Source of the DNA: Spirochaetia bacterium
GTDB taxonomy: Bacteria; Spirochaetota; Spirochaetia; UBA9216
NCBI GenBank assembly: GCA_963677925.2
Contig: CAXXYH010000003.1
Coordinates: forward strand, 704,001 to 768,000
Length of the DNA stretch: 64,000 nt
Direction of reading: 5' to 3'
The notes under the pieces are model-generated. The model did not search any database. It had not been told where the DNA came from and saw only the letters and a program-made list of their open reading frames with translations. Position numbers and translations under genes: made by a program. Positions 37,872 through 58,434 of this stretch are shown piece by piece; the first letter of the stretch is position 1, and the number at the start of each line of letters is the position of its first letter.

Positions 37872-39827
37872 CTAAAGTGAGATTGCTGTATAGAATGCTT
37901 CCTGATTAGCATTATACAGATTTCGGCCGGTCCCCATACATGAGCCTACAGGATAAATGTATCCGGGATATTCGGACAGGAGCTTTTCAGACAATTCAAC
38001 AGCCGGTTCAACACCGGTTGCAATAATAAAGCTGTCAGCCTTTATTATATGCCGGCGGCCTTCAATATCTGTCGCGACAGCCCCATGCTCGGAAAACTTG
38101 CTGATTAATTTTCCGCCATCCAGAATTACATGATGCTTCTTTAATTTCTCCATCAACTCCATCCCGTAGAAATTCGGAAGACTTTCACCAAAGTGTTCTA
38201 CAGTGATATGATCAATTATTCTAATCTTTCGCCCCATTTCGGCAAGCATCAAGGCTGTTTCAAGCCCGCTCATTCCGGCTCCGCAGATAACAACCTCTTC
38301 ACCCGGAGTTCTTCTGCCGTAGAGAAGCTCTTTCAGCAGAATCACATTCGGACTTTCAAGACCGGTACAGTCAGGCATTTTATACCGGGAGCCGGTTGAT
38401 ACCACTACAGCATCAGGATTAATATCAGCTACTAGACAGTTTGTAACCTCTGTATTATAAACTATCTCAGTTCCTGATTTTCGAGTAGCACGGATATCCC
38501 ATTCAAGATATTCTTTCATATACTTTTTGAAAGGAATCATGCACCCGTCTGAAAGCAGTCCTCCAAGATGATCTGATTTTTCAAAAAGGATAACAGAGTG
38601 TCCCTTCCCTGACAAAGTCTGAGCGGCCATCATCCCTGCAGGTCCGCCGCCGGCTACCAGTATTTTCTTACTGTCCGACGGGGTTATAATACATCTGTTT
38701 TTAAAATCCATACCAAGCCACGGATTTACAGCACAGCGCATACTGATTCCGAATTTATGAAATTTTCCACATTCATCACATCTGCTGCATGGTCTGACAT
38801 CTTCAGGTTTACCCATAATAGCTTTTCGTATTAAACCGTTATCCGCCTGAAAAGCCTTGGCCATAGCAACAATATCAGCACTTCCGGAGGATATAATCAT
38901 ATTCGCATCGTCCACAGTATTAATGTTTCCGACGACAGCGACCGGAACTTTCAGTACCTGTTTTGCTTTTCTTGAAAACTCAACATTGTGAAGCCTGTCT
39001 TTAAAAAGAGTTGAAATTGCAAAACTTCCACCGCTTGTATAAATATTACCCCTTGAGATATGCACTATATCTATAAATTCTTCGGCTTCGATCATAAACT
39101 CAAGAGATTCATCGAACTCAAGCCCTCCCGGTGTATCCTCGGTAGCGCTTACACGAATCTCAATAATTACATTTTCGCCGACAGTATCCCGAACAGCCTT
39201 CAGAATCTCAAGCGGGTAACGTCTTCTTGCAGCCGGGGAACCTCCGTACTGATCTTTTCTGATATTACTTTCAGGCGAAAGGAACTGCCCAAGCAGATTG
39301 TTGTGACCGCACTGTATCATCAGCATTCTCATTCCGGCGTTTACACAGCGGGCAGCACATTCACAGAAACGAGACTTGATAAACTCAAGATCTTCTATAT
39401 CCATTTCTTTCAGACTGTCTGGACTTCTTCCCGGAAGAGGCACCACCGACGGAGCAAGGGCATAGCCTCCCTTTTGCGGAACTGCTCCCCTTCCTGCGTG
39501 TGAAAGCTGAATAGATATTTCCGCTCCGTTTTCTCTTGCTGCATTTACCAGCTTGGAAAGACCGAAAATACTTCGATCGTTTGTAATATCCATTTCACAA
39601 TGCCAGGAGGAATTACGATCATATACAACGGGAGCATTACCGAGGGTTACATAGGCTACACCGGTCTTGGCCTGAAATGCCACGTAATCGATCATTTCGG
39701 GAGTGACCTTTCCGTCCGGTGTACATCGAAGAACAACTGTCGGTGCATACTGCAGCCTGTTTTTTAGAGTAATTCCCCGTACAGTAATGGGTTTGAATAC
39801 TTCAGGATAACGGGTGTTTCTAAGCAG
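37872..39827 (-). CDS. NADH:flavin oxidoreductase (OYE-like FMN barrel, Fe-S, FAD domain); probable CTG start
   Basis: Frame extends 44 codons above ATG 39695 (LLRNTRYPEVFKPITVRGITLKNRL...) to a CTG 6 nt after AAGGAG. 'CSRCDEC...CAVNP', 'GGGPAGM'. Confidence 0.85.
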   Translation of the reverse strand: MLRNTRYPEVFKPITVRGITLKNRLQYAPTVVLRCTPDGKVTPEMIDYVAFQAKTGVAYVTLGNAPVVYDRNSSWHCEMDITNDRSIFGLSKLVNAARENGAEISIQLSHAGRGAVPQKGGYALAPSVVPLPGRSPDSLKEMDIEDLEFIKSRFCECAARCVNAGMRMLMIQCGHNNLLGQFLSPESNIRKDQYGGSPAARRRYPLEILKAVRDTVGENVIIEIRVSATEDTPGGLEFDESLEFMIEAEEFIDIVHISRGNIYTSGGSFAISTLFKDRLHNVEFSRKAKQVLKVPVAVVGNINTVDDANMIISSGSADIVAMAKAFQADNGLIRKAIMGKPEDVRPCSRCDECGKFHKFGISMRCAVNPWLGMDFKNRCIITPSDSKKILVAGGGPAGMMAAQTLSGKGHSVILFEKSDHLGGLLSDGCMIPFKKYMKEYLEWDIRATRKSGTEIVYNTEVTNCLVADINPDAVVVSTGSRYKMPDCTGLESPNVILLKELLYGRRTPGEEVVICGAGMSGLETALMLAEMGRKIRIIDHITVEHFGESLPNFYGMELMEKLKKHHVILDGGKLISKFSEHGAVATDIEGRRHIIKADSFIIATGVEPAVELSEKLLSEYPGYIYPVGSCMGTGRNLYNANQEAFYTAISL

Positions 39828-40884: not shown

Positions 40885-41544
40885 TTATCCGCGGCGTCTC
40901 CGTCTTGCTGGTGCTGCTGCTTCGAATGAACCGACAGGCACAGGAGCTTCAGGCGTTTTTGGAATAACGGCTCCGGCTTTGACTACAGCTTCGTGAGGGC
41001 AGACCTCAAGACATAATCCGCACTTTGTACATTTACTCTGATCGACAACATGAATAAGACCGTTATCGCCCAGGATTGCATTATCGGGGCACTTTTCCTT
41101 ACAGACTAAACAGCCCTGACATTTATCGGGGAGTATAGCAAAGTTGACAAACTTTTTACAGACGAGAGAGGAACATCTTTTCATACGAATATGTTTTCCC
41201 CATTCATCACTGTAATTACTAACAGAGGCTAAAACAAGCTCAGAGACCTTTTTTGCCATCTCACAGCCGGCAGTGTCCTGAATCACCTGACAAACATCGG
41301 TAATAAGTTCAAGATCCTCTGATTCTCCCTGATCCATTGTTATATCTGAAATTATTGTATAAATCTGCAGAAGGCCTTCCCGGCACATTACACATTTACC
41401 GCAGGAAGCTTTACTTCCTGTTTCAGCAATATTAAGCGCCCAGTCTACAGGACATACATCATCCTTCTTCTGAAGAATCTCACTTACATCCGGAAAAATC
41501 TCTCCGGTCTTTTCGCATAAAAACAGTTCTGTACTCTGGCTCAT
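40885..41544 (-). CDS. NuoF/HydB C-terminal-like Fe-S protein (N3-type cluster plus 2x[4Fe-4S]) lacking the FMN/NADH domain
   Basis: 'CPVD', 'SCGKCVMCREG...C', 'CQGCLVCKEKCP', 'CTKCGLCLEVCP'. ATG 41544 overlaps the upstream stop. Confidence 0.8.
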   Translation of the reverse strand: MSQSTELFLCEKTGEIFPDVSEILQKKDDVCPVDWALNIAETGSKASCGKCVMCREGLLQIYTIISDITMDQGESEDLELITDVCQVIQDTAGCEMAKKVSELVLASVSNYSDEWGKHIRMKRCSSLVCKKFVNFAILPDKCQGCLVCKEKCPDNAILGDNGLIHVVDQSKCTKCGLCLEVCPHEAVVKAGAVIPKTPEAPVPVGSFEAAAPARRRRRG

Positions 41545-43655
41545 TTCTTTATAAATTCCGTCCAAATTCTTGGTTTAGCAATCTTCATCCTGAGATCGCA
41601 CTGCAGGCAGCGTGCAGATTCTTCAGTCGCATTGCAGCTTGAAAATCCAAGATCAACCCTGGCAAAACTGCCGACCCGGGCTTCTGCCGGAGCAAGATCT
41701 GTATGTTTTCTCATTTCAAGAGCAAAGCCTTCTATCTGTCCGATATTATCTTCAGCCGGTTCCTGCTCAAGCAGCACTTCACCAACAGCACCGTCTCCAC
41801 CGAGATAGATATCTATGGCAGATGCAGCATCCTTACCTCTTGCGATTCCCTCGATAACAAACTTTGTACCGCTGACAACATCTCCGGCGGCAAACACGCC
41901 TTCGACGCTTGTTTCATATTTACCCGGCTTAACATCAATAAAACCGAAGGGGGTAAGTTCCAGGCCGAATGACTCATCGATATCTGTTTTCTGTCCGGTT
42001 GCAAAAATAATTGTATCTGCAGGTATAACAGATTCAGAATCAGGAGCAATGTCCATAACAAGCTTTCTTTCTGCATCAAAGTGAAAACTGTTAACTCCTG
42101 CACTTCTTATTCCTGAAGGTCTTCCGTCTTTTTCTTCTATGGCAATCATCGTACGGGAATTATGAATTTTAACTCCTTCCTCCCGGCCCTGTACTATTTC
42201 TTCCTCATCGGCGAGCATTTTTCCATCGGCCTCAAGGCAGACCATATTGACATCTTCAATTCCGAGCCTTCTGCAGACCCTGGCAATATCAAAGGCAACG
42301 TTTCCGCCTCCGAGTACAGCAACACTGTTTCCCAGCTCAACCTTATTACCGAGTGCAGTCTCGCGAAGAACATCAAGTGCTGTATACACATAGGGAAGAT
42401 CAGAACCGGGTATACCGATTTTTCGTCCCGCAGATGCGCCGACTGCCACAAGTACTGAATCAAAACCGTCTTTCAGTAAAGCCGGAGCGTTTTCAACCGG
42501 AGCCCCGGTTTTAAGAGTAATTCCGTCAGCTACAACGGTGTCGACTTCCTTTTTGATTAGGTCTCTGGGCATTCTATATTCCGGGATACCGTATGCAAGC
42601 ATACCGCCGGCAACCGGAAGTTTTTCAAAGACAGTAACATCATGGCCGCAGCGGTTAAGAAAATAAGCGGCAGTGATTCCGCAGGGTCCGCCTCCGACTA
42701 TTGCTACCTTCTTGCCGGTTGCAGGTTTCTTCTCATGCTTTTCTTTCCAGACCTCATCGAAATCGTGCTCCGCTGCAAAGCGCTTGATGTCCCTGATAGA
42801 TACGGGATCATTCAGGCTGTTTCGCTTGCACTCAGACTCGCAGAGTCTGTTGCAGACATAACCAAGACTGATTGGAAAAGGTGCCTTTTCACGGATTACA
42901 GCTGTGGCTTCAGAATACCTGCCTTCCTTTGCAAGTCTAACGTAACGAGGTATATCTATATGAGCGGGACAGCCCACACGGCAAGGTATCTTGGCTATAT
43001 CAGCCGGAGCATCTTTTTTGAATATTCCGTCTGCATCTCTGAGAGCTCCTGTCGGACAAACCTCAATACAGGCTCCGCAGAAGCGGCAGTTTGATTCGAT
43101 CAGGGACAAATCGTCAGTAGTACCTACATAACTTTCTCCGTCATGGTTTCTGTAATCAAGTACTTTTACACCGCGCAGTTCATTACATGCACGAACACAG
43201 CGGCCGCACTGAATACATCTTTCCATTTCACGGACAATCAGCGGATTATTAGTGTTAAGGTTTATAGTCTTCTTTTTTATATCTCGCATTCTGGAATGTG
43301 CAGCACTCAGGTACTGCATCATTGCCTGAAGTTCGCAGTTAAGGTAAACTACACATGATGTACAGTCATGCGGATGACACGCCAGCATCAGCTCTAAAGC
43401 CGTAACCCGCAGATGGTGGAGCTTGTCGGATTTTGTATTTACAACCATCCCTTCGGAAGCCTCTGTCATACAGGAAAGTACTGTATCTCCGCCGGTTTCG
43501 ACAACACAGAGTTTACATTCTCCCTGGGGAGACAAATCAGGATGTGAACAAATATGCGGAATATAAACACCGGCATCGAGGGCTGCGTCAAGAACACTCT
43601 GTCCTTCTGCGGCTTTTACTTCAACACCATCAATAGTAAGTGAAATCTCTTTCAA
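41541..43655 (-). CDS. Fusion of a NuoG/HydA-type N-terminal Fe-S relay with a GltD/NfnA-type FAD-NAD(P)H domain
   Basis: [2Fe-2S] 'IPHIC...CKLCVVE...SC', 'HPHDCTSC...CELQ', 2x[4Fe-4S]; then 'PCRVGCPAH', 'GYVCNRLCESEC', 'GGGPCG', 'GGGNVAFD', 'FAAGD', 'RCLQC'. No H-cluster or Mo motifs. Confidence 0.85.
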   Translation of the reverse strand: MKEISLTIDGVEVKAAEGQSVLDAALDAGVYIPHICSHPDLSPQGECKLCVVETGGDTVLSCMTEASEGMVVNTKSDKLHHLRVTALELMLACHPHDCTSCVVYLNCELQAMMQYLSAAHSRMRDIKKKTINLNTNNPLIVREMERCIQCGRCVRACNELRGVKVLDYRNHDGESYVGTTDDLSLIESNCRFCGACIEVCPTGALRDADGIFKKDAPADIAKIPCRVGCPAHIDIPRYVRLAKEGRYSEATAVIREKAPFPISLGYVCNRLCESECKRNSLNDPVSIRDIKRFAAEHDFDEVWKEKHEKKPATGKKVAIVGGGPCGITAAYFLNRCGHDVTVFEKLPVAGGMLAYGIPEYRMPRDLIKKEVDTVVADGITLKTGAPVENAPALLKDGFDSVLVAVGASAGRKIGIPGSDLPYVYTALDVLRETALGNKVELGNSVAVLGGGNVAFDIARVCRRLGIEDVNMVCLEADGKMLADEEEIVQGREEGVKIHNSRTMIAIEEKDGRPSGIRSAGVNSFHFDAERKLVMDIAPDSESVIPADTIIFATGQKTDIDESFGLELTPFGFIDVKPGKYETSVEGVFAAGDVVSGTKFVIEGIARGKDAASAIDIYLGGDGAVGEVLLEQEPAEDNIGQIEGFALEMRKHTDLAPAEARVGSFARVDLGFSSCNATEESARCLQCDLRMKIAKPRIWTEFIKK

Positions 43656-43877
43656 GAAAATTACTCCTGGTAAAATTAGTTGTGTCTTTTAAAGGATGAT
43701 AAATGATATCAAACATTACTTGTGTTGGTAAGCTGCAATTCTTTAGATCACACAATCAGTTTTATACTTTCAATTACCCCGTACTTGATACAATTATGAA
43801 TGTCCGATCTATAATACTGAAGATGGTGTTCTGTGCTTTTATAAAGTATTATAAGTAAAGGAATAACAGTAACAACA

Positions 43878-45251
43878 ATGAGTATCTACAATACAGAAGC
43901 CATTTCCCGCCTGATGAGAAATTCAGCGGCAGAGAAGAACCAGCTTAGTATCACAACACTTTGCGACAGTAAGTGCATCTACTGCGGTCAGAAGCAGGAT
44001 TTTACTGATTTCCAGTCAGTACGAAACGGGCATAAGGATATTACAGCAATCCGAAACAGTATTGCTCAGCTTGATCCGGAAATTCCGATTTCAATAGGAC
44101 AGTCGGATATCCTTGTAACTGAAGGAGAACCATTTCTGCACCCGGATTTCAGAAAGATAATAAGGCATATACGGGATATACACCCTGCCGCCCCGATTGA
44201 GATTACAACAAACGGACATTTTCTGACAGCTGATAATATTAACTTTCTTAATGATATGGGTGATGTTTATATCAAGGTCATTATTAACAGTTCTGAATCC
44301 TATATCAGAAAATCTGTCATGGGTGATCATGAGCTTCTCTCTGAAAATACAATTAACGGAATTATTCTTCTCGGTGAATCAGAGATTACTTACAGCGGAA
44401 TAATAATAGCCGTACCCGAGCTGATTGACGAAGAACAGCTGCTTCAGACAGCTTTATTCCTTGACGCTAATAGAGCTGATAAAATAGAAATCAGCCTGCC
44501 TTTATGCTCCGCTTTTATTGAACGTAACCTTTTTCCTGAGCTGCGGAAAGTATACTGTGAGCTCCGTTCTAAAATAAAAAATATTTCCTCTCGGATAAAT
44601 ACCCCTATAAACCTGGCGTCAGAACTGATACAGGATTTACTTCCTGTTGTCACCGGGGTAGTTAAAAACGCTCCGGCCTGGGACGCAGGAATCAGAACCG
44701 GTGACATTATTCTGGCTGTAAACGGAAAGATTCCTTTATGCAGAGAAGATGCTTTCAATATGCTCTCTATACCGGGACCTGTAGAAGCTGCTGTAAAATG
44801 TGATGAATCAGTGGAAACTCTCAAATGGTCAAACCCATATCAGTATTGTTCAGGAATTATAATGGAAAATGACTTCAGCCCAAACCGGGCTGAATATATC
44901 CGGATGGCAGTTGAAAAAAACAAGGGTAAATCACTTCTGCTGTGTTCAGAGACAGGGTTCGGAATCCTCTCTGCTGTTTTAAAAAAGCTTAAGCTGAAAC
45001 AGGATGACGCTCAGGCAGTTCTTGTTTCCTGCGAAAGATCTGACAGCCTTATCGCAACAGATAAGATTCTCAGCATCGACGACTATGAAAATGCCTATAG
45101 GATGTTTATGGCTGATTCCGTTGAAAAAGCTAATCAAATCACTCAGCTGATTCTGCCTCAGGAAAGTTTTGATTCTGAAGGCTATGATTATAATATGCTG
45201 GATTTCATGGATCTTGAATCAAGAACCGGATTGAAGGTTACAGTAATTTGA
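43878..45251 (+). CDS. Radical SAM-PDZ-DUF512-like protein
   Basis: 'TLCDSKCIYC', 'EGEPFLHP', 'ITTNG', PDZ 'VTGVVKNAPAWDAGIRTGDIILAVNG', C-terminal 'LILPQESFD.EGYD'. Confidence 0.75.
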   Translation: MSIYNTEAISRLMRNSAAEKNQLSITTLCDSKCIYCGQKQDFTDFQSVRNGHKDITAIRNSIAQLDPEIPISIGQSDILVTEGEPFLHPDFRKIIRHIRDIHPAAPIEITTNGHFLTADNINFLNDMGDVYIKVIINSSESYIRKSVMGDHELLSENTINGIILLGESEITYSGIIIAVPELIDEEQLLQTALFLDANRADKIEISLPLCSAFIERNLFPELRKVYCELRSKIKNISSRINTPINLASELIQDLLPVVTGVVKNAPAWDAGIRTGDIILAVNGKIPLCREDAFNMLSIPGPVEAAVKCDESVETLKWSNPYQYCSGIIMENDFSPNRAEYIRMAVEKNKGKSLLLCSETGFGILSAVLKKLKLKQDDAQAVLVSCERSDSLIATDKILSIDDYENAYRMFMADSVEKANQITQLILPQESFDSEGYDYNMLDFMDLESRTGLKVTVI

Positions 45252-47467
45252 ATGACAGAAGCTGGATTAAGCATGAAAACGGCTATACGGTAGTACGAAG
45301 CACCGCAAGAACAGCTCCGGGCTGCCATCAGGGATGCGGCGTACTGCTTTACACCAGAGACGGCAAACTTGAAAAAGTGCGAGGAAATCCGGAATTCCCT
45401 TTCAGCGAAGGAAAGATATGCCCCAGATGTTCTGTCCTGCCTGAAGTTGTTTATCATCCGGACAGAATTCTCCACCCTCTAAAAAGAGCAGGTAGAAAGG
45501 GAGAAGACTGCTGGGAACAGATCAGCTGGGACGAAGCATACACAATAATTGCAGATAAATTTAATTCATACAAAGCCGAATTCGGAGCGGAATCGGTCAT
45601 TTTCTGTACAGGAACACAAAGAGACATAGCCTCATACATGAACAGGATGGCTACGGCTTTTGGAAGCCCGCATACACTCTCTTTCGGACCTCTGCTCGGC
45701 CATGCCTGCTTTGTCCCCAGAATAGCTGCATCTATGTTCACCTGCGGTGGGTTTCCGGTTGCAGACTGCTCCCAGTATTTCGAGGATCGCTGGGATAATC
45801 CTGAATGGAAACGGCCTGAAACCATTATAATCTGGGGGAAGTCTCCCGCCCAGTCCAATTCGGATGGATTTCTGGGAAGCTGGATAAGCAGGTGCCTGAA
45901 GATGGGCAGCAGGATGATAGTGATTGACCCGAGAAAAACTGTTACGGCGTCAAAGGCGGACAGCTGGCTACAGCTGCGCCCCGGAACCGACGGGGCACTG
46001 GCTATGGGGTTTCTCCATGTTATTATCAAAGAGAAGCTATATGACGACGATTTTGTTGAAAACTGGACCATCGGATTTGATGAACTTAAAACAGCAGTTA
46101 CAGAGTATACACCGGAAAAGGCCTCTGAAATAACATGGATTCCTGCACAGAAAATAATTGAAGCCGCCCGTGATTACGCCCGGGCGGCCCCGGGACTCAT
46201 TTTATGGGGAGTGGCAGTAGATCAGTCCAAAGAATGCATTCCGGCAATACACGCAATACTTGCGCTTAAGGCCATAACAGGAAACCTCGATACTCCCGGC
46301 GGAAATGTTTTTACAGGCAGAAACTTTGAGTTTGATGCAATGTTTCGATGGAATGATGTTGAACTGCCTCCCGGACAAAGGGACAAGGCATTTGGAATTG
46401 ACGGACATCCTCTTCTTCAGGCGATAAATCTTTACAAGGGTGATGATGTTCTTGAACAGATGCTCAGTGCTGAGCCCTACCCTGTTAAAGCGGCATGGAT
46501 TCAGGGAACAAATACATTCGTCTGCGGCTCCGGAGACTCTAAAAGAACCTATGAGGCATTTAAAAACCTCGATTTCACCGTTGTTGTCGATGTTTTTATG
46601 ACACCTACTGCAATGGCCTTTGCCGACATTGTCCTGCCTGCAGCAGCATATCCTGAAAAGGACGGAATAGCTGTTACCGACGGGTCCAACTATCTTGCAA
46701 CAATTAATAAAGCCATCGAACCTCCGGGCGAATGCCGCTCTGATGCACAGATTGTTCTTGAACTTGGAAAGAAATTAAACCCGGCAGACTGGCCGTGGAG
46801 AAACACTCTTGAGATGTTTGATTACATGCTTGAAAGAACCGGCTTCACTTTTGCAGAGCTGAGAGACAAGGGATGGGCTTATGACAGTTTTTCATACAGA
46901 AGATATGAAAGAGGTCTATTACGGGCTGACGGAAAACCGGGATTTAACACTCCCTCAGGGAAGATTGAGCTGTCATCCAGTCTATTCAGGCAGTGGGGCC
47001 TGTCACCGGTTCCATATTATGAAGAACCGCCGGAAAGTCCTGTGAGCACTCCGGAGCTGTTCTCACAGTATCCGTTAATCCTTACTACCGGCGGTAAAAC
47101 CAAGGCGTTTTTTCATTCCGAACAGAGACAGATAAAAAGCCTCAGAAAAATGAACCCCGATCCGCTTCTTGAAATACATCCGGATACCGCAGCTAATCTC
47201 GGAATCTCAGATGGTGATTATGTATATATTGAAAATGCTCACGGAAAATGTATACAGAGAGCAAAACTGACTGAGGGGATACATCAGAAGGTTGTACATG
47301 CTCAGCACGGGTGGTGGTTTCCTGAAAAAGCAGCTTCGGAACCTGAACTCTTCGGTGCCTGGGAATCTAATATAAACCTGCTGCTGCCTAAGGGCTGGAC
47401 AGGCCGTTCCGGGCTGGGATACCCGTTTAAATCTCAGATTTGTAAGGTTTATAAAAAGATAGATTAA
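45248..47467 (+). CDS. Cytoplasmic bis-MGD Mo/W oxidoreductase (DMSO reductase family; acetylene-hydratase/catechol-dehydroxylase-like clade)
   Basis: 'PGCHQGCG...ICPR', 'YHPDRILHPLKR', 'ISWDEA', 'GHACFVPR', 'LRPGTDGALA', 'ADIVLPAA', 'HSEQRQ', 'HGWWFPE'. No Tat signal; TTG start overlaps the upstream TGA. Confidence 0.88.
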   Translation: MNDRSWIKHENGYTVVRSTARTAPGCHQGCGVLLYTRDGKLEKVRGNPEFPFSEGKICPRCSVLPEVVYHPDRILHPLKRAGRKGEDCWEQISWDEAYTIIADKFNSYKAEFGAESVIFCTGTQRDIASYMNRMATAFGSPHTLSFGPLLGHACFVPRIAASMFTCGGFPVADCSQYFEDRWDNPEWKRPETIIIWGKSPAQSNSDGFLGSWISRCLKMGSRMIVIDPRKTVTASKADSWLQLRPGTDGALAMGFLHVIIKEKLYDDDFVENWTIGFDELKTAVTEYTPEKASEITWIPAQKIIEAARDYARAAPGLILWGVAVDQSKECIPAIHAILALKAITGNLDTPGGNVFTGRNFEFDAMFRWNDVELPPGQRDKAFGIDGHPLLQAINLYKGDDVLEQMLSAEPYPVKAAWIQGTNTFVCGSGDSKRTYEAFKNLDFTVVVDVFMTPTAMAFADIVLPAAAYPEKDGIAVTDGSNYLATINKAIEPPGECRSDAQIVLELGKKLNPADWPWRNTLEMFDYMLERTGFTFAELRDKGWAYDSFSYRRYERGLLRADGKPGFNTPSGKIELSSSLFRQWGLSPVPYYEEPPESPVSTPELFSQYPLILTTGGKTKAFFHSEQRQIKSLRKMNPDPLLEIHPDTAANLGISDGDYVYIENAHGKCIQRAKLTEGIHQKVVHAQHGWWFPEKAASEPELFGAWESNINLLLPKGWTGRSGLGYPFKSQICKVYKKID

Positions 47468-47472
47468 AAAGC

Positions 47473-49023
47473 TTAGTAACCGCCGGATGGTCTTCCGGAG
47501 TTTTTCAAATAGTTGCCGGGAGTGATTCCCTCATAGCGCTTGAAAGCCCGGCTCATGGTGAGCGGATTACAGTATCCTACTATACTGGCGGCGTCCTTTA
47601 CACTGATGCCCTTGGCCATAAGTTTCTTGGCACTCTTCATTCTGAGCTTATGTATGTAATCAAGAGGTGAGATTCCGGTATATTTTTTGAATACTCTTGC
47701 GTAATAAGCGGAGTTAATTTCAAAATGGTTCGCGATCGCTGTGACATTTATATCCGGATCATTGTAATGTTTATCAATGTAGGACAAAGTATTCTCAAAC
47801 CACGAAGGCGGAAGTTCCTTATTCTTGTTTGAGAAATAATCAATAATAGCGTCAAAAATCATTATAAGCTGATCATGCAGTTCATCGAAGGTACCGCATG
47901 TAACAACCCTGGTAGTAGGATCCAGCTGCCTCATGAAATCTTCATCAATATCCTCTTTGATTAGTCCCATAGCATTTATCGCAGCATCGATTACTCCGTA
48001 AAGTCTGCACCGTGCCAGCAGAAGTGATGGATATTCACGTGAATAATCGTTTGTTATAAGTTCGGTAATTAAGGTTTTTGCATTCTCGAAGTCGCCGACC
48101 TGTATGCTGGTTATCAGTCTGCGGACTTCATCAAACTTATGGTAAGTAGCACCGAATTTGTACCAGCTGTCATGACTGACGTAATAATCAGTATATCGTA
48201 TTATTCGTGAATTATTCCCGGTGATGTACTTGTACTCAAAAGTACCGTACACCTCCTTATAAGTCTTTGGCAGATCATTGTAGCCGTCATGAAGTTCACT
48301 TATTACAGCAGAAAGGTAAACACCGTATTTTTCTTCCATAAACCGAAAAACTTTATTGGCAAAATTTTCTGCGATATCCTTATTTCTTTCAGCCTCATCT
48401 TTGTTGGAAGTGAAAGGCAGGTTGAAAACCGCTATATTGATATCTTCCAAATCAAGAACATATCCTGTCAGTTCAGCCGGAAGATTATCTTTCAGACTCT
48501 TACTTATTATTTCAGTTCGAACTTCATAATTAAGAGGATCCTCCTCCTTATGCACATCAAAACCTACAAGCAGGAAACCTGTTTCCGGGAAAAAGACATC
48601 ATATTCTTCCAGTTTTTTTAAAACAAGACTCAAATCCAGATCCAGACCTTTAAACAGCCTTATAAAATGTACATCTCTATCGATTAGGTTGAGTCTTTCC
48701 GCGTGGCTGTCCAGTTTTTCAAGCGAGTCTTCAAGAGTCTGACCGAGTTGCTCGATCCCTTCTATCTTAATAGATCTAGCCCCGAGTTTATTTACCAGCC
48801 TGCGCATTATTATTCTGGAATTCTGATATTTGATAGACTGCCGGAAAAAGATCATCATTATTCCTGCAAAGACGGCGGCCTGTACTACCGACAGAATCAG
48901 AAAAACAGAGACACTGAAGGAATTGAAAGCAAGCAGCGAGACGAGGACAAAGCAAATAAAGTAAAGTAGCAATCCGACTGTATATAGTATTCTGCTTTTT
49001 TTTATTGAATCAATTTTCAGCAA
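47473..49023 (-). CDS. Membrane-anchored AraC family regulator
   Basis: Two N-terminal TM helices; C-terminal 'YIDKHY.DPDI...YYARVFKKYTG...AKKL...VGY.N...RAFKRYEGITPG'. Confidence 0.88.
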   Translation of the reverse strand: MLKIDSIKKSRILYTVGLLLYFICFVLVSLLAFNSFSVSVFLILSVVQAAVFAGIMMIFFRQSIKYQNSRIIMRRLVNKLGARSIKIEGIEQLGQTLEDSLEKLDSHAERLNLIDRDVHFIRLFKGLDLDLSLVLKKLEEYDVFFPETGFLLVGFDVHKEEDPLNYEVRTEIISKSLKDNLPAELTGYVLDLEDINIAVFNLPFTSNKDEAERNKDIAENFANKVFRFMEEKYGVYLSAVISELHDGYNDLPKTYKEVYGTFEYKYITGNNSRIIRYTDYYVSHDSWYKFGATYHKFDEVRRLITSIQVGDFENAKTLITELITNDYSREYPSLLLARCRLYGVIDAAINAMGLIKEDIDEDFMRQLDPTTRVVTCGTFDELHDQLIMIFDAIIDYFSNKNKELPPSWFENTLSYIDKHYNDPDINVTAIANHFEINSAYYARVFKKYTGISPLDYIHKLRMKSAKKLMAKGISVKDAASIVGYCNPLTMSRAFKRYEGITPGNYLKNSGRPSGGY

Positions 49024-49137
49024 ACTGGATAAAACTCCTTAGAACAATCTGCAGTATTTATTATAATCCAGAATGAGGTATTAACAAGTTATTTTAATAA
49101 CTTCAAACGAATTAAAACTGCATAACAAATGAAAAAT

Positions 49138-49168
49138 AAAAAAATACCGGACTATTTCAGTCCGGTAT
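49138..49168 (-). terminator. Rho-independent terminator of the acyl-CoA operon
   Basis: ATACCGGACT-N5-AGTCCGGTAT with a T-run on the minus strand. Confidence 0.8.
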
Positions 49169-49182
49169 CTATTATGCAGTAA

Positions 49183-49851
49183 TCAGTCGAGATTTACAAT
49201 CTTAAAATCATCAGCTTTTACAACATCAGCATCAGTTGATTCAAGAACAAATTCTGCGGTATATGGAGCAAAAACTTCTTTCATAATGAATTTTCCGCCC
49301 TCAATTTTGAAGACTCCGACATCTGTAACAAGATAGTCTACCTGGTTTACAGCAGTCAGAGGAAGAGTACACTCTTTAAGGAGCTTTGATGTTCCGCTTT
49401 TTTCAAAGTGAACGCCGGCACAAATAACGGTCCGGGCACCGACAACCAGGTCCATAGCCCCCCCCATACCGGGAACCATTTTTCCGGGAATCTTGTAATT
49501 TGCCAGGTTTCCGTTCTGGTCAACCTGAAGCACACCAAGAACTGTGTAGTCTACATGACCGCCCCTGATTATACCGAAAGAAGTAGCTGAATCAAAGTAA
49601 CAGCCGCCGTCAAGCAGTGTTACAGGCATTCCGCCCGCATTAACAAGAGTCAGATCTTCCTCACCCTCGGCAGGTACAGGTCCAAGACCTAGAAAGCCGT
49701 TTTCAGACTGAAGGGTAATTTTCACATCCTCAGGAATATAGTTACCTACAAGGGTAGGAAGACCGATTCCGAGGTTAACCACATCACCGTTGCTGAAAAA
49801 CTGTGCAATTCTTTTTGCGATTATTTCTTTATTTGGCGTATACTCCATCAC
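49183..49851 (-). CDS. atoA: 3-oxoacid/acetate CoA-transferase subunit B
   Basis: 'VNLGIGLPT', catalytic 'SENG', 'IRGGH', 'GMGGAMDL'. Confidence 0.9.
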   Translation of the reverse strand: MMEYTPNKEIIAKRIAQFFSNGDVVNLGIGLPTLVGNYIPEDVKITLQSENGFLGLGPVPAEGEEDLTLVNAGGMPVTLLDGGCYFDSATSFGIIRGGHVDYTVLGVLQVDQNGNLANYKIPGKMVPGMGGAMDLVVGARTVICAGVHFEKSGTSKLLKECTLPLTAVNQVDYLVTDVGVFKIEGGKFIMKEVFAPYTAEFVLESTDADVVKADDFKIVNLD

Positions 49852-50525
49852 TTATCCCCCTGTACAAGAAAATTAACAAAAACTGCGGGAGTAATGATAG
49901 TTTCAGGATCAAGCTCACCTATTTCAACAATTTCATCAGCCTCAACAATAACAATTTCACATGCAGTTGCCATCATAGGGTTAAAATTTCTTGCAGACTT
50001 GGAATATACAACATTGCCGGCCTTATCTGCTTTTGATGCCTTTATAAGCGCAACATTTCCTTTCAGAGGTTTCTCAAGAATATACTTAATTCCATCCTCT
50101 TCAATAACTGTTTTACCGATTTCAACTTCAGTACCGACTCCTGTAGGAGTGAGAAACCCGCCGAGACCGCATCCGCCTGCACGAATCTTCTCGGCAAGAG
50201 TTCCCTGAGGAACAAGCTCAACTTCAGTTTCTTCAGCTATCATCTGACGCTGGATTTCCTGATTTAGTCCGATATGCGAAGCAATTACTTTTTTGAACTG
50301 CTTGTCGCGGATATTTGCATAAACACCGTTCTGCTTACCCATTTTCTCATTATCCCATCCGCAGTCGGTGGAAATAAGAGTCATGTCTTTTCTGCCGCTG
50401 TCTTTCAATGCTTTTAGAAGTTTAGGCGCAGCTCCGCAGCCCATGAATCCGCCGGACATTACAATATCGCCGTCGGAAATCTTTTTAACAGCTTCCTCAG
50501 CGGTTAAAATTTCTTTTTCAACCAT
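49848..50525 (-). CDS. atoD: 3-oxoacid/acetate CoA-transferase subunit A
   Basis: 'GGFMGCG', 'ASHIG', 'PQGTLAEKIRAGG', 'ARNFNP'. Confidence 0.9.
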   Translation of the reverse strand: MVEKEILTAEEAVKKISDGDIVMSGGFMGCGAAPKLLKALKDSGRKDMTLISTDCGWDNEKMGKQNGVYANIRDKQFKKVIASHIGLNQEIQRQMIAEETEVELVPQGTLAEKIRAGGCGLGGFLTPTGVGTEVEIGKTVIEEDGIKYILEKPLKGNVALIKASKADKAGNVVYSKSARNFNPMMATACEIVIVEADEIVEIGELDPETIITPAVFVNFLVQGDK

Positions 50526-50537
50526 TATATACTATCC

Positions 50538-51719
50538 TTATACCATTTCTATACAGAGCGCAGCACCCATACCGCCGCCGATACAGAGTGTGGCAAGACC
50601 CTTCTTAAGGCCTCTCTTTTTCATTTCGTGAACTAGAGTAACAAGGATTCTTGTGCCGCTTGCGCCAATTGGATGACCTATTGCAATCGCTCCGCCGTTA
50701 ACATTCACGATTGACTCATCCCAGCCGAGGGCCTTGTTTACAGACATTGCCTGTGCAGCAAACGCTTCATTTGCTTCAACAAGTTCAAGCTCAGAAATAC
50801 TCCATCCAGCCTTATCCAGGGCTTTTTTTACAGCCTCCACGGGTCCGTACCCCATTATAGAAGGATCAACACCTGCAACACCGTAAGAAACAACCTTAGC
50901 CAGGGGTTTAAGATTCTTTTCTTTAACATATTCACCTGAAGCAACAAGGAAGGCAGCAGCACCATCATTAACACCCGAAGCGTTTCCGGCGGTAACCGTA
51001 CCGTCTTTCTTAAAGGCCGGTTTAAGTTTTCCAAGAGATTCTGCAGTTACTCCGTCTCTGATAAACTCATCAGTATCAAAAACAACAGGATCACCCTTTC
51101 TCTGAGGAATCATGTAGGGGATTATTTCATCTTTGAATTTGCCTGCTTTTCTTGCAGCCTCGGCCTTGTTCTGCGAAGCAGCAGCAAATTCGTCCTGAGC
51201 TTCTCTTGTAAGTTCAAATTTTTCTGCAAGATTTTCAGCAGTGATTCCCATATGGTAATCATTGAATGCATCCCAAAGCCCGTCATTAACCATTGTATCG
51301 ATCATAGGACTGTTGCCCATACGGTAGCCGTATCTTGCTTTTGTAAGAGCATAAGGAGACATTGACATATTCTCTGTACCGCCGGCAACTATAAGATCAG
51401 CATCTCCGCACTTGATGCTCTGAGCTGCAGTCATTATTGTTCTAAGACCTGAACCGCAGACCATGTTAAGTGTAATTGCAGTCTTTTCAACAGGAATACC
51501 AGCTTTAACAGAAACCTGTCTTGAAATGTTCTGCCCAAGTGCCCCTTGAAGGACACAGCCGAACTGCACTTCGTCAACATCTGAAGGCTCGATACCCTGT
51601 CTTTCAAGAAGATTCTTAATAACAGCAGCACCAAGGTCTCCTGGATTTACCGCGGAAAGTGTTCCGCCGAAGGAACCGACAGCAGTTCTTCCGCCGTCAA
51701 CTAAATAAACATCTTTCAT
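50538..51719 (-). CDS. thlA: Acetyl-CoA C-acetyltransferase (thiolase)
   Basis: 'NMVCGSGL', 'NEAFAAQ', 'GHPIGASG', 'LCIGGGMG'. ATG 51719. Confidence 0.93.
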
Positions 51720-51793
51720 ATTCTTCACCTGTATTTGTAAAATAAATTGTTGTGAAAATAGTAACAATAAATCAAAAAATAGTCATTACACAA

Positions 51794-52645
51794 TTATTTA
51801 TAATTATGCCAGCCTTCACCCGACTTTCTTCCGAACTTACCTTCCGCAACAAGTTTCTTTACTGATTCAGGAGTTGCCCAACCGGTCACAGGAAGAGCTT
51901 CCATTGTTTCGCATACATGAGGGAAGGTATCCAGACCTGAAAGATCCATCATCTCGAAAGGGCCCAGTGGATGATTAAGTCCCATCTTAATTGCTGTATC
52001 GATATCTTCAATTGAAGCTACACCGTCTTCATAACAGTGGATAGCCTCAAGCATAAAAGCAAAAAGACATCTGTTTACAATAAAACCCGGAGTGTCGGTC
52101 TTACACTCAACCGGACTTTTTCCCATACCGAGGCCTACTTCCTTTACGGCTTCAACAGTTGCATCAGAAGTTTTATCGCCGCGAATAATCTCAACCAGCT
52201 TCATAGCTGTCACCGGAAAGAAAAAGTGCATACCGGCACCTCTTTCTGGGTTCTTCATATCCGACATAATGTCTGTAATCGACATCGAAGAAGTATTTGT
52301 ACACATAACTGCATCAGGACGGCAGATTTCGCCCAGTTCCTTAAATATGCTTTTCTTGATATCAAGTATTTCAACAGCTGCTTCGATGACCATGTCACAG
52401 TCTTTAAGATCAGCCATGTTTTCCGTGGTTGAGATATTTGCCATAGTTGCAGCAACATCTTCTGCCTTTGCCTTTCCGGCCGCAACTCTCTTATCAAGAC
52501 CGGCCTGCATCTTGGCAATTGCCTTGTCGCAGAACTCCTGCTTTATATCTCGAAGGATTACTGAATACCCCTTCGAAGCTGCTATCTGGGCAATCCCTGC
52601 GCCCATCTGTCCGGCGCCAAGAACACCGATTGTTTTAATTTCCAT
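51794..52645 (-). CDS. hbd: 3-hydroxybutyryl/hydroxyacyl-CoA dehydrogenase
   Basis: 'GAGQMGAGIA', 'TNTSS', 'GMHFF', 'PGFIVNR', 'GRKSGEG'. Confidence 0.88.
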   Translation of the reverse strand: MEIKTIGVLGAGQMGAGIAQIAASKGYSVILRDIKQEFCDKAIAKMQAGLDKRVAAGKAKAEDVAATMANISTTENMADLKDCDMVIEAAVEILDIKKSIFKELGEICRPDAVMCTNTSSMSITDIMSDMKNPERGAGMHFFFPVTAMKLVEIIRGDKTSDATVEAVKEVGLGMGKSPVECKTDTPGFIVNRCLFAFMLEAIHCYEDGVASIEDIDTAIKMGLNHPLGPFEMMDLSGLDTFPHVCETMEALPVTGWATPESVKKLVAEGKFGRKSGEGWHNYK

Positions 52646-52675
52646 CGTATTTCCTCCAAAAAATTACGAAATATT

Positions 52676-53518
52676 TTATGTGTAATCGTACCAGCCCTTC
52701 CCTGTCTTCTTACCGAGTCGTCCGGCTTTCACCAGTTCTTTTAGAGAACGCGGAGCTTTCCATTGCTGTCCGATTTCTTTTTCATAGTATTCAAGTCCGC
52801 TTAAGATCACATCAAGTCCAATAATATCAGCCAATGCAAAGGGGCCGATAGGAAGGTAGGTTGTAGTCATCGCCTTATCTATATCTTCTATTGATGCCAG
52901 ACCTTCTTCATGTGCTTTAAAAGCTTCAATAAAAAGCGGAGTGTATATCCTGTTTGCTATAAATCCGGGAGAGTCTTTTTTCACATCTACGCAGAGCTTT
53001 CCCATTCTTTCTGCAACTTCACGGCAGACAGCCATAGAAGCAGGACTTGTATAATATCCCTTTGTTATTTCTATGAGCTTTGAGGGAGGAAGAAAAAAAT
53101 GCATTCCGCAGACGGATTCAGGTCTTTTAGTGGCAGCTGCTATTGAAGTGATTGAATAAGTGGAAGTACTGGATGTAAGAACAACTGAGCCCTTGCAGAT
53201 TTCGTCCAGTTTTTTAAAAACTGAATTTTTTATATCCAGATTTTCGGCTACAACTTCTATTACAAAATCAACATCTTCATAGCCTTCGTAGCGGCTTGTA
53301 CAGCTGATCAGATTAAAGGCGGTATCAGCATCAGCTTTTGCAACTTTACCTTTTACCGACATTTTATCCAGTTGATCTCTTATATGCAGCATTGCCTTTT
53401 CAAGGCTATCATCCGAAATATCTTCAAGTATCACCGGATAGCCGGCAAGCGCAGCAGTGACCGCTATACCGCTGCCCATCTTTCCTGCACCGCAGATACC
53501 TATTTTTTCTACTGCCAC
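52676..53518 (-). CDS. 3-hydroxyacyl-CoA dehydrogenase paralog
   Basis: 'GAGKMGSGIA', 'GMHFFLP', 'PGFIANR', 'GKKTGKG'. GTG start. Confidence 0.87.
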   Translation of the reverse strand: MAVEKIGICGAGKMGSGIAVTAALAGYPVILEDISDDSLEKAMLHIRDQLDKMSVKGKVAKADADTAFNLISCTSRYEGYEDVDFVIEVVAENLDIKNSVFKKLDEICKGSVVLTSSTSTYSITSIAAATKRPESVCGMHFFLPPSKLIEITKGYYTSPASMAVCREVAERMGKLCVDVKKDSPGFIANRIYTPLFIEAFKAHEEGLASIEDIDKAMTTTYLPIGPFALADIIGLDVILSGLEYYEKEIGQQWKAPRSLKELVKAGRLGKKTGKGWYDYT

Positions 53519-53528
53519 CCTGCTGCTC

Positions 53529-54311
53529 CTAAACCCAGGCAGTCTGTCCGCCGTCTATAACGACATACTGTCCTGTCATATACTTTGATGCATCAGAGGC
53601 AAGAAAAACTGCGGCACCCTTTAAATCATCATCGGTTCCATATCTGCTTAAGGGAATCCTGGGAATCAGCATGTCTGCTTTAGCTTCAAGCAGTTTGTCA
53701 TTCAGACTTGTAGGGAACCATCCGGGGCAGATTGCATTAACGGTAATTCCATAACGTGCCCATTTAACAGCAAGATCCCTGGTCATATTAATTACCGCAC
53801 CTTTACTTGCTGTGTAGGGAACAGAGTCGACGCTCTCCGGAATATCTCCGCCCAGGCCCCCGATTGAAGCGATATTTATAATTTTACCGCTCCCCATTTT
53901 TTTCATTTCACGTGCAGCAATAGCCGACAGCTGAAAGGTTCCGTTTACATTAAGATTCATTACTTTCTGAAACTTGTCCATGGGAAAATCAAGAGAATCC
54001 GTTACCCAGCTTATTCCTGCATTGTTTACCAGGATGTCAATGCTGCCGAGTTCTCTGATTGCCGTATCCACAAGATTCTGGCAGTCGGTTTCAATACTGA
54101 CATCACAGGCAACAGGCAGGGCCTTTATGCCCAGTCCTTCAAGCCTTTCACAGAGCTCGATACATCTTTCAACTTTTCTTGCGGCGATAACAACATTTGC
54201 ACCAGCCTCAGCAAGTCCCTCTGCCATCTGGGCACCGAGACCTACTGAACCGCCGGTTATAACTGCATTCTTTCCGCTTAAATCAAACAACTGCTTTACA
54301 TTCAATTTCAT
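53529..54311 (-). CDS. SDR oxidoreductase (gluconate-5-dehydrogenase-like)
   Basis: 'TGGSVGLG', 'NNAG', 'YTASKG', 'PGWF'. Confidence 0.9.
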   Translation of the reverse strand: MKLNVKQLFDLSGKNAVITGGSVGLGAQMAEGLAEAGANVVIAARKVERCIELCERLEGLGIKALPVACDVSIETDCQNLVDTAIRELGSIDILVNNAGISWVTDSLDFPMDKFQKVMNLNVNGTFQLSAIAAREMKKMGSGKIINIASIGGLGGDIPESVDSVPYTASKGAVINMTRDLAVKWARYGITVNAICPGWFPTSLNDKLLEAKADMLIPRIPLSRYGTDDDLKGAAVFLASDASKYMTGQYVVIDGGQTAWV

Positions 54312-54320
54312 CTTCCGGAT

Positions 54321-56227: not shown

Positions 56228-56264
56228 TAATATACCGCCTGTAATTTATTTTGATTTGGTGCTG

Positions 56265-57167: not shown

Positions 57168-57251
57168 TTCGCACCTGCTAATATAAACACAGCTGACAAT
57201 ATCCTTATTCCCGGGTACTCATCAGCTGTGCCTAATTTTTTGTTGGATTTA

Positions 57252-58418: not shown

Positions 58419-58434
58419 ATTTTCTACTCCATTG

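Follow-up and report, generated by a model that had tools for sequence, protein, structure and literature searches.

A divergent radical SAM-PDZ-DUF512-type protein encoded in an overlapping unit with a cytoplasmic Mo/W enzyme in one small spirochaete lineage

Background

In a spirochaete genome a gene for a radical SAM protein that also carries a PDZ domain and ends in a DUF512-type tail (gene 1, protein P0001) overlaps the start of a gene for a cytoplasmic bis-MGD molybdenum or tungsten enzyme (gene 2, protein P0002), which raises the question of whether the first protein serves the second. A first-pass annotation of the locus had proposed that it does so as a dedicated modifying or maturing enzyme, by analogy with Mmp10 (7qbs/7qbt), a radical SAM enzyme that uses B12 to C-methylate an arginine of methyl-CoM reductase. 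Mmp10 is the sole DUF512-class enzyme with a known target in the literature surveyed, the target being a residue of another metalloenzyme. Wang et al. 2024 (PMC11659888) described two further proteins, pfDUF512 (9cg2) and csDUF512 (9cg1), as radical SAM proteins of the cobalamin-dependent class 2. Which reactions the bacterial DUF512 radical SAM enzymes catalyse is asked outright in a review of December 2025 (PMC13331322). Across the open-access literature surveyed, no bis-MGD enzyme is described with a radical SAM partner. Here we analysed the locus within the window, i.e. the whole stretch of 64,000 nucleotides of DNA, and compared both genes with their relatives.

Results

Positions of the genes and elements discussed, numbered from the first letter of the window.
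Feature	Position	Strand	Basis or context
226-aa protein, NuoF-C-terminal Fe-S and 2x[4Fe-4S]	40885..41565	-	in the operon of the flavoprotein
704-aa Fe-S flavoprotein, NuoG-like N-terminus and GltD-like NAD(P)H domain	41541..43655	-	divergent to the pair
Intergenic region from which the flavoprotein operon and the gene 1/2 operon diverge	43656..43877	.	ORF list
Gene 1 (P0001), radical SAM - PDZ - DUF512-type protein	43878..45251	+	ORF, translation, Pfam, family alignment, model, fold
[4Fe-4S]/SAM cluster codons, C29-x3-C33-x2-C36	43962..43985	+	translation, alignment, conservation table
PDZ domain, about aa 244-329	44607..44864	+	Pfam PDZ_6, model strands, conservation table
DUF512-type (cobalamin-domain-like) tail, aa 330-457	44865..45248	+	profile and Foldseek matches, PF04459 matches of relatives
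Degenerate cobalamin-loop segment ERSDSLIATDKIL, aa 386-398 (family NRFFGGxIxAAGLL)	45033..45071	+	alignment, profile, conservation table
TTGA, TTG start of gene 2 overlapping TGA stop of gene 1	45248..45251	+	sequence; identical in G001
Gene 2 (P0002), cytoplasmic bis-MGD Mo/W enzyme, 739 aa	45248..47467	+	ORF, Pfam, NCBIfam, closest structures, alignment
AraC-family regulator, 516 aa, convergent	47473..49023	-	syntenic in G001

According to the ORF list and translation, gene 1 starts with ATG and encodes 457 amino acids, which align collinearly with its protein family over residues 1-457 in the same order of radical SAM, PDZ and DUF512 domains. Pfam matches were obtained for Radical_SAM (PF04055, residues 24-186, E 1.1e-12, 48.9 bits against a cut-off of 29.5) and for PDZ_6 (residues 257-284, E 2.8e-9), which bears out the PDZ domain noticed earlier. 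The CxxxCxxC, GEP and TNG motifs had also been read correctly: C29, C33 and C36, conserved in 98% of 132 family representatives, are intact, as are EGEP at residues 82-85 and TTNG at residues 110-113. Together with N137 and R144, which are likewise retained, the latter two are 86-100% conserved across the family, and we take them to be SAM-binding motifs (GGE-like, ribose motif). The PDZ core residues G260, A267, G271, D276, R289 and A292 are kept as well.

The DUF512 assignment held by an indirect route. A search of Pfam gave no match of gene 1 itself to PF04459 (DUF512) at E<=0.1, but the model is matched by the orthologue in genome G010 (E 3.4e-9) and by 96 of 101 family members, and the family profile finds pfDUF512 (E 1.1e-14) and csDUF512 (E 3.2e-14) through the FFGG..AGLLT motif. 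The predicted structure of gene 1 (pLDDT 86, pTM 0.84) has 9cg2, 7qbt/7qbs (Mmp10) and 9cg1 among its best Foldseek matches (E 4.6e-10 to 5.5e-9); over the whole length, 9cg2 ranks first (E 4.6e-10) and 9cg1 sixth (E 2.8e-9), with 7qbs at E 5.5e-9. Judged by family profile and predicted fold, the tail is of the DUF512 type despite the lack of a direct Pfam match.

In gene 1, as in pfDUF512 and csDUF512, the radical SAM core comes first and a cobalamin-type DUF512 domain forms the C-terminus, and the family shares the motifs CxxxCxFC..QNPPE and FFGGxIxxAGLLT with both proteins. Differences concern the PDZ domain, which lies between the radical SAM and DUF512 domains in gene 1, is N-terminal in csDUF512 and is absent from pfDUF512, and the position after the third cysteine, where the family has Ser (Gly in gene 1) and the two solved proteins an aromatic residue stacking between the cluster and cobalamin. 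The overall radical SAM and DUF512 fold of Mmp10 resembles that of the gene 1 model (Foldseek E 5.8e-10, TM 0.51-0.58), but Mmp10 has no PDZ domain, whereas gene 1 has one together with a degenerate cobalamin loop. Furthermore, gene 1 does not reach the Mmp10 equivalog TIGR03278 (16.3 bits against a cut-off of 350).

The glycine-rich segment of the tail had been suspected of being degenerate, and the alignment agrees: the family residues F388, G389, G390, G396 and L397, 88-100% conserved among the 132 representatives, read S, D, S, K and I in gene 1. Compared with the loop of pfDUF512 and csDUF512, gene 1 has neither FFGG nor AG, and the lower-axial Leu (L366 of csDUF512) has become Ile397; S357, which corresponds to csDUF512 T323 (the Thr/Ser to the DMB base), is kept. 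Residues 388-390, within this loop, are the least confident stretch of the model. Next to the cluster, the family motif FCSH..NPP reads YCGQ..DFT, with S37, N41 and P42 lost. Altogether gene 1 deviates at 23 of the 67 columns that are at least 85% conserved, compared with a median of 4 deviations among the 132 representatives (95th percentile 9.4, maximum 14), and residues that are 97-100% conserved in the family are missing (S37, E75, S135, G389, G390, G396 and L397). Besides the cobalamin loop, 16 family-conserved residues are replaced in the genus of the window, mostly in the radical SAM domain. The loss is selective and spares the PDZ core as well as the Cys and SAM motifs. The G010 copy has an intact cobalamin loop and 8 deviations, within the normal range of the family.

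Genes for CobS and for 8-9 B12-binding proteins are present in each of the three genomes that carry the pair (G000, G001 and G010). Cobalamin is thus available to these organisms, which rules out a B12-free organism as the cause of the degenerate loop. Judging from the residues replaced, the copy in the window is probably no longer a canonical B12 methylase, and the analogy with B12-dependent methylation by Mmp10 is weakened for this copy because its cobalamin loop has been lost.

The assignment of gene 2 to the Mo/W enzymes of the DMSO reductase family was upheld by matches to Molybdop_Fe4S4 (PF04879), Molybdopterin (PF00384) and Molydop_binding (PF01568), all above cut-offs. Its TTG start is the 5'-most in frame, and orthologues align from residue 2-4. 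The model for the formate dehydrogenase alpha subunit (TIGR01591) is not reached (318.9 bits against a cut-off of 666.25). The closest solved relative of this protein of about 740 residues is acetylene hydratase (2e7z, E 1.7e-95), for which we know of no described radical SAM partner. Asp13 is essential in acetylene hydratase, but gene 2 has His27 at the aligned position, and this His is invariant in 34 orthologues. C154 is invariant too and is a candidate metal ligand. The closest orthologues (P0008-P0012) are 66-75% identical to gene 2. A gene for a 108-aa Fe-S subunit follows the Mo enzyme at 17 of 21 deltaproteobacterial orthologue loci and is absent after the spirochaete gene; the module has therefore been rebuilt in this lineage. 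By description only, the gene 2 orthologues resemble the soluble Gordonibacter-type catechol dehydroxylases described by Maini Rekdal et al. 2020 (PMC7028382) in having no TAT signal and in being accompanied by a small 4Fe-4S protein and sometimes by an MFS transporter. These dehydroxylases pair with a small Fe-S protein, whereas gene 2 of the window has no such subunit, and the passages searched in that paper contain no mention of 'radical SAM'.

The two-gene operon with its TTGA overlap was confirmed, and a possible ribosome-binding site (GAAGG) lies 10 nt upstream of the overlapping start of gene 2. The two genes overlap by 4 nt in G001 as well and by 17 nt in G010. A promoter scan returned sites no more often than expected by chance (9 vs 7.7 +/- 3.0). 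The flavoprotein gene upstream is transcribed away from the pair in G010 too, and its product is likely to be the electron donor. Many catabolic genes are found in the window.

The pair is present in 3 of 11 genomes of the order, which belong to two genera, and the other 8 have neither gene; the independent observations of the pair are two only (genus g1 and G010). Across the host phylum the family profile matched only 2 of 401 sampled genomes, the second match being a different 645-aa protein. A relative of gene 1 adjoined the Mo enzyme at none of 21 loci of orthologues from a deltaproteobacterial class (44-62% identity), where flanks of 0.05-1.5 kb were examined, with at least 1.29 kb upstream at 15 loci. 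No family member occurs anywhere in the five genomes bearing the best Mo-enzyme orthologues (5/5), and none of 100 Bacillota-type family genes adjoins a Mo enzyme. Conservation of the pair, which had been named as a check, was found among the same three genomes of the order but not at the deltaproteobacterial or Bacillota-type loci. Hence the pairing is real but local to one small spirochaete lineage.

Between G000 and G010 the radical SAM proteins share 36% identity, compared with 72% for the Mo enzyme and 70% for the flavoprotein. In a quick tree the spirochaete proteins group together (aLRT 89), and their sister is a cyclase-linked clade from Deltaproteobacteria (100); their branches are long, at 1.3 and 0.89 vs 0.14-0.48. 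The genes of this sister clade lie directly after a PF04199 metal-hydrolase/cyclase gene at 4/4 loci with upstream sequence. The copy in the window is fast-evolving and probably borrowed.

The RS-PDZ-DUF512 family comprises 492 representatives at E<=1e-30. It is present as a single-copy gene in 101 of 401 Bacillota-type genomes, and tsaD is located within 1.5 kb upstream at 72 of 95 Bacillota-type loci. Gene 1 of the window is not downstream of tsaD, its upstream neighbour being the divergent flavoprotein gene. In an Atlas look-up the homologue P0129 was found in clusters of Bacillota and Thermodesulfobacteriota; P0001 is absent from the Atlas. A PF00384 protein is absent from 9 of the 101 genomes with the family (lists compared by hand). 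Genes for formate dehydrogenase or Moco synthesis occur 2.4-10 kb downstream at 8 of 25 metagenome and genome family loci, and, among the 77 Bacillota-type loci whose downstream flank reaches 10 kb or more, formate dehydrogenase lies downstream at 22 (26 counting MoaA). As a control we used 20 tsaD loci from family-free, PF00384-positive genomes of the same phylum; formate dehydrogenase was found within 11.7 kb downstream of tsaD at 4 of the 14 with enough flank. Since formate dehydrogenase is equally near tsaD where the family gene is missing (22/77 vs 4/14), its nearness is a matter of tsaD-region synteny, and a family-wide link with Mo/W enzymes was rejected. Taken as a whole, the family speaks for a housekeeping role linked to tsaD and not for one with molybdoenzymes, and gene 1 is no general maturase of the Mo-enzyme family of gene 2.

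Discussion

We consider it very probable that gene 1 belongs to the tsaD-linked class-2 (DUF512-type) family, has diverged strongly within it, was acquired horizontally and captured upstream of a Mo/W gene, and that the two genes are gained or lost as a pair. The capture would have placed it directly upstream of, and overlapping, the gene for a cytoplasmic Mo/W enzyme resembling acetylene hydratase and catechol dehydroxylases, in one small spirochaete lineage. That the captured gene was later recruited into the Mo-enzyme module in an accessory role is a far more tentative proposal, plausible from the sequence comparisons but short of probable. As the [4Fe-4S]/SAM core and the PDZ core are kept, gene 1 is predicted to be still able to bind SAM as well as a partner protein or peptide, and it may act on, or assemble with, the Mo-enzyme polypeptide translated right after it.

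Somewhat unlikely, though with several observations in its favour, is a role of gene 1 as a pathway enzyme. Its radical chemistry would then be directed at a small molecule, for instance phenolic or N-containing, of the catabolic route to which the Mo enzyme belongs. In G345, and partly in G368, the place of gene 1 before the Mo orthologue is taken by the gene for another radical SAM protein, P0127 (NCBIfam NF045502 variant_rSAM, E 6.1e-60, Cx9CxxC motif), with GntR, BKACE, a PF04199 cyclase and a deacetylase-like gene as neighbours. In addition, a PF04199 gene precedes the sister-clade genes at all four loci with upstream sequence, the replacements S135I, S175I, R204E, G209L and E247A resemble a re-modelled substrate pocket, and the window is rich in catabolic genes. 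However, a recognisable radical SAM gene was found at only 1 of the 15 orthologue loci with full upstream flank, a pathway enzyme would be expected to be conserved like its neighbours and is not, and the PDZ core is kept while the catalytic regions drift. A common 'cyclase' link of the two radical SAM systems was considered separately and is weak, the cyclases of the respective loci (L013 and L107) being only 34% identical.

It is improbable that the linkage is incidental, with gene 1 keeping the ancestral tsaD-linked housekeeping job after landing before the Mo gene by chance. Such a job would suit the single-copy occurrence of the family and its usual place after tsaD, and also the G010 copy, which stays within normal family variation; yet spirochaetes otherwise lack the family, gene 1 is found only alongside the Mo enzyme, and the copy in the window has lost residues that are almost universally conserved.

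Gene 1 is under purifying selection and is not decaying, a possibility that the first-pass annotation had raised: between G000 and G001 its dN/dS is 0.108 at a dS of 0.45, with equal length and no indels. The corresponding ratios are 0.050 in the Mo enzyme and 0.02-0.11 across six neighbours. A remnant without function, whose only use is as a leader translated ahead of the Mo gene, might account for the 23 lost positions, for the low model confidence of the cobalamin loop and for a dN/dS about twice that of the Mo enzyme, but is very improbable given this selection, the full-length frame in two species and the intact cluster and SAM motifs.

The likeliest of these readings casts gene 1 as a neofunctionalised accessory, specific to this lineage, of the Mo-enzyme module, which we infer from the overlap in two genera, the co-occurrence, the purifying selection and the selective loss of residues. 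Against an accessory role stand the Mo-enzyme orthologues without gene 1 and the family members without Mo enzymes. Start/stop overlaps are, moreover, frequent in operons of every kind, and the 36% identity, set against 70-72% for the neighbours, suggests a divergence unexpectedly fast for the partner of a conserved enzyme.

Of the original claim of a dedicated partner, the conserved overlapping unit within the lineage stands and a general maturase role does not. With its cobalamin loop intact, the G010 protein might carry out Mmp10-like B12-dependent chemistry, and in the genus of the window the protein would work without cobalamin or would serve only for binding or as a scaffold. We regard it as unlikely that a DUF512-type radical SAM/PDZ protein acts here as a dedicated partner modifying or assembling a DMSO-reductase-family enzyme, in a cobalamin-dependent (Mmp10-like) form in G010 and a cobalamin-independent form in the window.

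The claim is a narrow one, the link being confined to three genomes. The locus is nonetheless a rare case in which operon structure and co-occurrence tie a DUF512-type protein to one specific enzyme, and G010 with its intact cobalamin loop and G000/G001 with the loop lost offer a natural pair for comparison. If gene 1 were indeed a dedicated partner of the Mo enzyme, no earlier case would be known of a bis-MGD enzyme whose maturation depends on a radical SAM protein, and bacterial DUF512 enzymes would have gained their first concrete protein target.

Organization of the two-gene unit

The gene for a radical SAM (RS)-PDZ-DUF512-type protein (gene 1, P0001) and the gene for a bis-MGD Mo/W enzyme (gene 2, P0002; Mo enzyme) lie in a 5.04-Mb, 99.6% complete spirochaete genome (G000:C3:704001-768000), and they form a two-gene unit, because a divergent operon stands upstream and a convergent AraC gene downstream. 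The TTGA in which the stop of gene 1 overlaps the start of gene 2, reported in the first-pass annotation, was confirmed in the sequence. GAAGG lies 10 nt 5' of the TTG, which is the earliest possible in-frame start, and orthologue alignments begin at residue 2-4. The divergent operon, judged from its gene content, could plausibly provide an NAD(P)H-to-Mo-enzyme electron path.

Features of the two-gene unit and its surroundings in the window
Feature	Position	Strand	Description
Gene 1	43878-45251	same as gene 2	ORF, 457 aa, ATG start
Gene 2	45248-47467	same as gene 1	ORF, 739 aa, TTG start
TTGA	45248-45251		stop/start overlap
Gene 2 N-terminus	45248-45440		unusual Fe-S motif
Divergent operon (spirochaetes)		opposite genes 1 and 2	NuoG-like/GltD-like flavoprotein, 704 aa; NuoF-C/2xFer4 protein, 226 aa
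AraC regulator, then long cluster	47473-61703	minus (cluster)	putative catabolic island
OYE/FAD enoate-reductase-like gene	37872-39695
OYE/FAD enoate-reductase-like gene	59484-61703

Domain architecture of gene 1

The intact CxxxCxxC, GEP and TNG motifs and the PDZ domain ascribed earlier to gene 1 were found as claimed (C29-x3-C33-x2-C36, EGEP 82-85, TTNG 110-113; Pfam Radical_SAM, E 1.1e-12, and PDZ_6, E 2.8e-9). The proposed DUF512 tail fared less simply in HMM searches: gene 1 has no Pfam DUF512 match at E ≤ 1e-1 and is one of five aligned family members that do not match PF04459, whereas the other 96 of 101 do, as does the orthologue from a second genus of the same taxonomic family (G010; E 3.4e-9). 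Against NCBIfam, in which no model covers the RS-PDZ-DUF512 family, gene 1 gave just sub-threshold generic radical SAM matches (Mmp10 model 16 bits, cut-off 350). A family profile of 24 sequences matches pfDUF512 (9cg2, E 1.1e-14) and csDUF512 (9cg1, E 3.2e-14), the matches being carried by a shared FFGGxIxxAGLLT motif, and with the AlphaFold model of gene 1 (pLDDT 86.2, pTM 0.84) Foldseek placed 9cg2, Mmp10 (7qbt, 7qbs) and 9cg1 among the best matches over the whole length. Judged by its relatives' PF04459 matches, the family profile and the predicted fold, the tail is of the DUF512 type despite the missing Pfam match. Gene 1 is a variant within the known DUF512-class radical SAM enzymes; its domain order is RS-PDZ-DUF512, while the two solved bacterial and archaeal proteins described in PMC11659888 have PDZ-RS-DUF512 and RS-DUF512.

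Distribution of the pair

Conservation of the pair, a check proposed in the first-pass annotation, holds within the lineage and not at the deltaproteobacterial loci with Mo orthologues. In a genome of the same genus (G001) identity is 90% for the radical SAM protein and 93% for the Mo enzyme, and the 4-nt overlap recurs; in G010 the values are 35-36% and 72% (70% for the divergent flavoprotein) and the overlap is 17 nt. Three of the order's 11 genomes have the Mo orthologue, and these same three have a full-length radical SAM gene; both are missing from the other eight, four of which are merely 81-86% complete. The family profile matched twice in 401 genomes of the phylum, namely G000 and a distinct 645-aa radical SAM protein in G332 (L113:8321-10680; 1e-69), whose gene precedes one for a small B12-binding-domain protein and has Sir2 and FdhE-like genes nearby. 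The other matches to the Mo enzyme in 301 phylum genomes are just 41-43% identical paralogues in six genomes. With the pair in three of the 11 genomes and rare in the phylum, both genes look imported, and they travel together.

Mo orthologues (44-62% identity) were found at 21 places in 14 of 209 deltaproteobacterial-class genomes. No family member lies within the flank at any of the 21, 15 of which have at least 1.29 kb upstream, and the five genomes with the best Mo orthologues hold none at E ≤ 1e-10. The profile is a working probe, since it found G000 at 1e-171 and matched 101 Bacillota-type genomes. Conversely, the closest relatives of gene 1 (38-39% identity) come from two deltaproteobacterial MAGs lacking a Mo orthologue above 40% identity; weaker matches lie on other contigs.

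The Mo enzyme and its neighbours

Gene 2 has the three bis-MGD family domains in Pfam and is above no NCBIfam equivalog cut-off. Its best 120 related clusters (52-93% identical), from sources including Chloroflexota, Desulfatiglandales, Thermodesulfobacteriota and Desulfosporosinus, are named merely 'molybdopterin-dependent oxidoreductase'. The best solved relative is acetylene hydratase (2e7z; E 1.7e-95), the catalytic residue of which is Asp13. This position aligns with His27, which like Cys154 is invariant in 34 orthologues, and gene 2 was therefore rejected as an acetylene hydratase. In its N-terminal Fe-S motif, which is unusual, Ala23 stands where Cx2Cx3C normally begins with Cys; C26, C30, C58 and C61 are invariant. 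A 108-aa two-[4Fe-4S] ferredoxin-like gene (P0128) directly follows the Mo gene at 17 of the 21 deltaproteobacterial loci (L086-L106) and is absent from the window, the spirochaete Mo genes having none. The soluble Gordonibacter-type catechol dehydroxylases, placed beside acetylene hydratase in PMC7028382, share features with the Mo orthologues by their description there: a TAT signal is absent, a small 4Fe-4S protein is the partner and an MFS gene is sometimes a neighbour.

The minus-strand cluster downstream encodes CoA-transferase A/B, two thiolases, three 3-hydroxyacyl-CoA dehydrogenases, an SDR, an enoyl-CoA hydratase, a butyrate-kinase-like protein and a phosphotransacylase. From these predicted functions it looks like a catabolic island, the substrate being possibly aromatic or cyclic.

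Gene 1 might alternatively be a small-molecule pathway enzyme, which we consider rather unlikely. In favour of it, an unrelated 439-aa 'variant' radical SAM gene (NF045502, E 6.1e-60; Cx9CxxC instead of CxxxCxxC) stands at the same position, directly upstream of the Mo orthologue, in G345 (L107:6560-7879) and partly in G368 (L087), and the sister clade of the spirochaete proteins is paired with a PF04199 cyclase gene (before the family gene at 4/4 loci with upstream sequence). The variant gene is preceded by GntR, beta-keto-acid cleavage enzyme and PF04199 cyclase genes; after it come genes for the 108-aa Fe-S subunit and for a deacetylase-like protein.

The family at tsaD loci

Searched with the profile, 1.84 billion representatives yielded 492 proteins at E ≤ 1e-30, of which at least 150 are full-length (about 430-470 aa). 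In the Bacillota-type sample the family occurs in 101 of 401 genomes, nearly always in one copy. At 100 of these loci (L146-L245), tsaD precedes the family gene by at most 1.5 kb, both being on one strand, in 72 of the 95 with enough flank, the family gene coming after tsaE-tsaB-rimI-tsaD; 5-formyl-THF cyclo-ligase follows within 3 kb in 22 of 90, and a bis-MGD enzyme adjoins in 0 of 100.

A family-wide formate dehydrogenase/Moco link was considered and rejected. In 22 of 77 loci (26 including MoaA) such genes are found at a distance of 2.4-10 kb downstream, and a PF00384 protein occurs in 92 of 101 genomes with the family versus 194 of 300 without (lists compared by hand), leaving nine family carriers without one. 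In control genomes lacking the family and having PF00384 (20 tsaD loci, 14 with enough flank), formate dehydrogenase lies within 11.7 kb downstream of tsaD in four of the 14; it is therefore a trait of the tsaD neighbourhood and not of the radical SAM gene. The NAD-type formate dehydrogenase genes beyond tsaD (L038, L043, L044, L048, L053 and many others) contain one in-frame TGA, which under table 11 splits each into two ORFs and is consistent with selenocysteine. In one Bacillota-type subgroup (L065:13273-14809), LarB-like (AIR carboxylase) and LarC-like (nickel insertion) genes stand between the family gene and MoaA/MOSC/MobB genes.

Divergence of gene 1

An incidental linkage, in which gene 1 keeps its ancestral function beside the Mo gene, appears improbable to us. 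At 67 alignment columns at least 85% conserved in 132 representatives (median 4 deviations, 95th percentile 9.4, maximum 14), gene 1 and its G001 orthologue deviate at 23 and G010 at eight. Lost are P24, S27, F35, S37, N41 and P42 around the cluster loop, E75, S135, S175, V177, G184, R204, G209, E247, P248 and R308, and F388, G389, G390, G396 and L397 of the cobalamin loop with L438 and G440; the degenerate Gly-rich segment noticed earlier is thus real. Retained are the three Cys, G74, EGEP, TTNG, N137, R144, the PDZ core and S357, I392, L398, D402 and D437. By profile alignment and the residues given in PMC11659888, L397 (Ile in gene 1) equals the lower-axial Leu366 of csDUF512, and the retained S357 its DMB-binding Thr323. 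Cobalamin is probably no longer used by gene 1 in this genus, to judge from these replacements; each of G000, G001 and G010 has CobS and 8-9 B12-binding proteins.

A quick maximum-likelihood tree groups the three spirochaete proteins in a single clade (aLRT 89), whose sister is the cyclase-linked clade (support 100), with branch lengths of 1.3 (G000 and G001) and 0.89 (G010) versus 0.14-0.48 in the sister clade. That gene 1 is a decaying remnant is very doubtful, since between G000 and G001 its dN/dS is 0.108 at dS 0.45 (Mo enzyme 0.050, six neighbours 0.02-0.11), with equal lengths and no indels. By these measures its divergence is extreme yet under selection.

Implications

We tentatively favour, at less than even confidence, that a family gene was captured into a Mo-enzyme module and re-purposed, so that gene 1 would be an accessory acting on, or assembling with, the Mo-enzyme polypeptide. 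The first-pass interpretation of it as a possible dedicated modifying enzyme of the Mo enzyme is partly supported and unproven. Tn-seq scored a C. difficile protein with the order PDZ-RS-DUF512 as essential (PMC12157513). For the family of gene 1, the tsaD linkage (t6A operon) offers a concrete lead to the reaction of a large DUF512 subfamily, which may be tRNA or ribosomal-protein modification.
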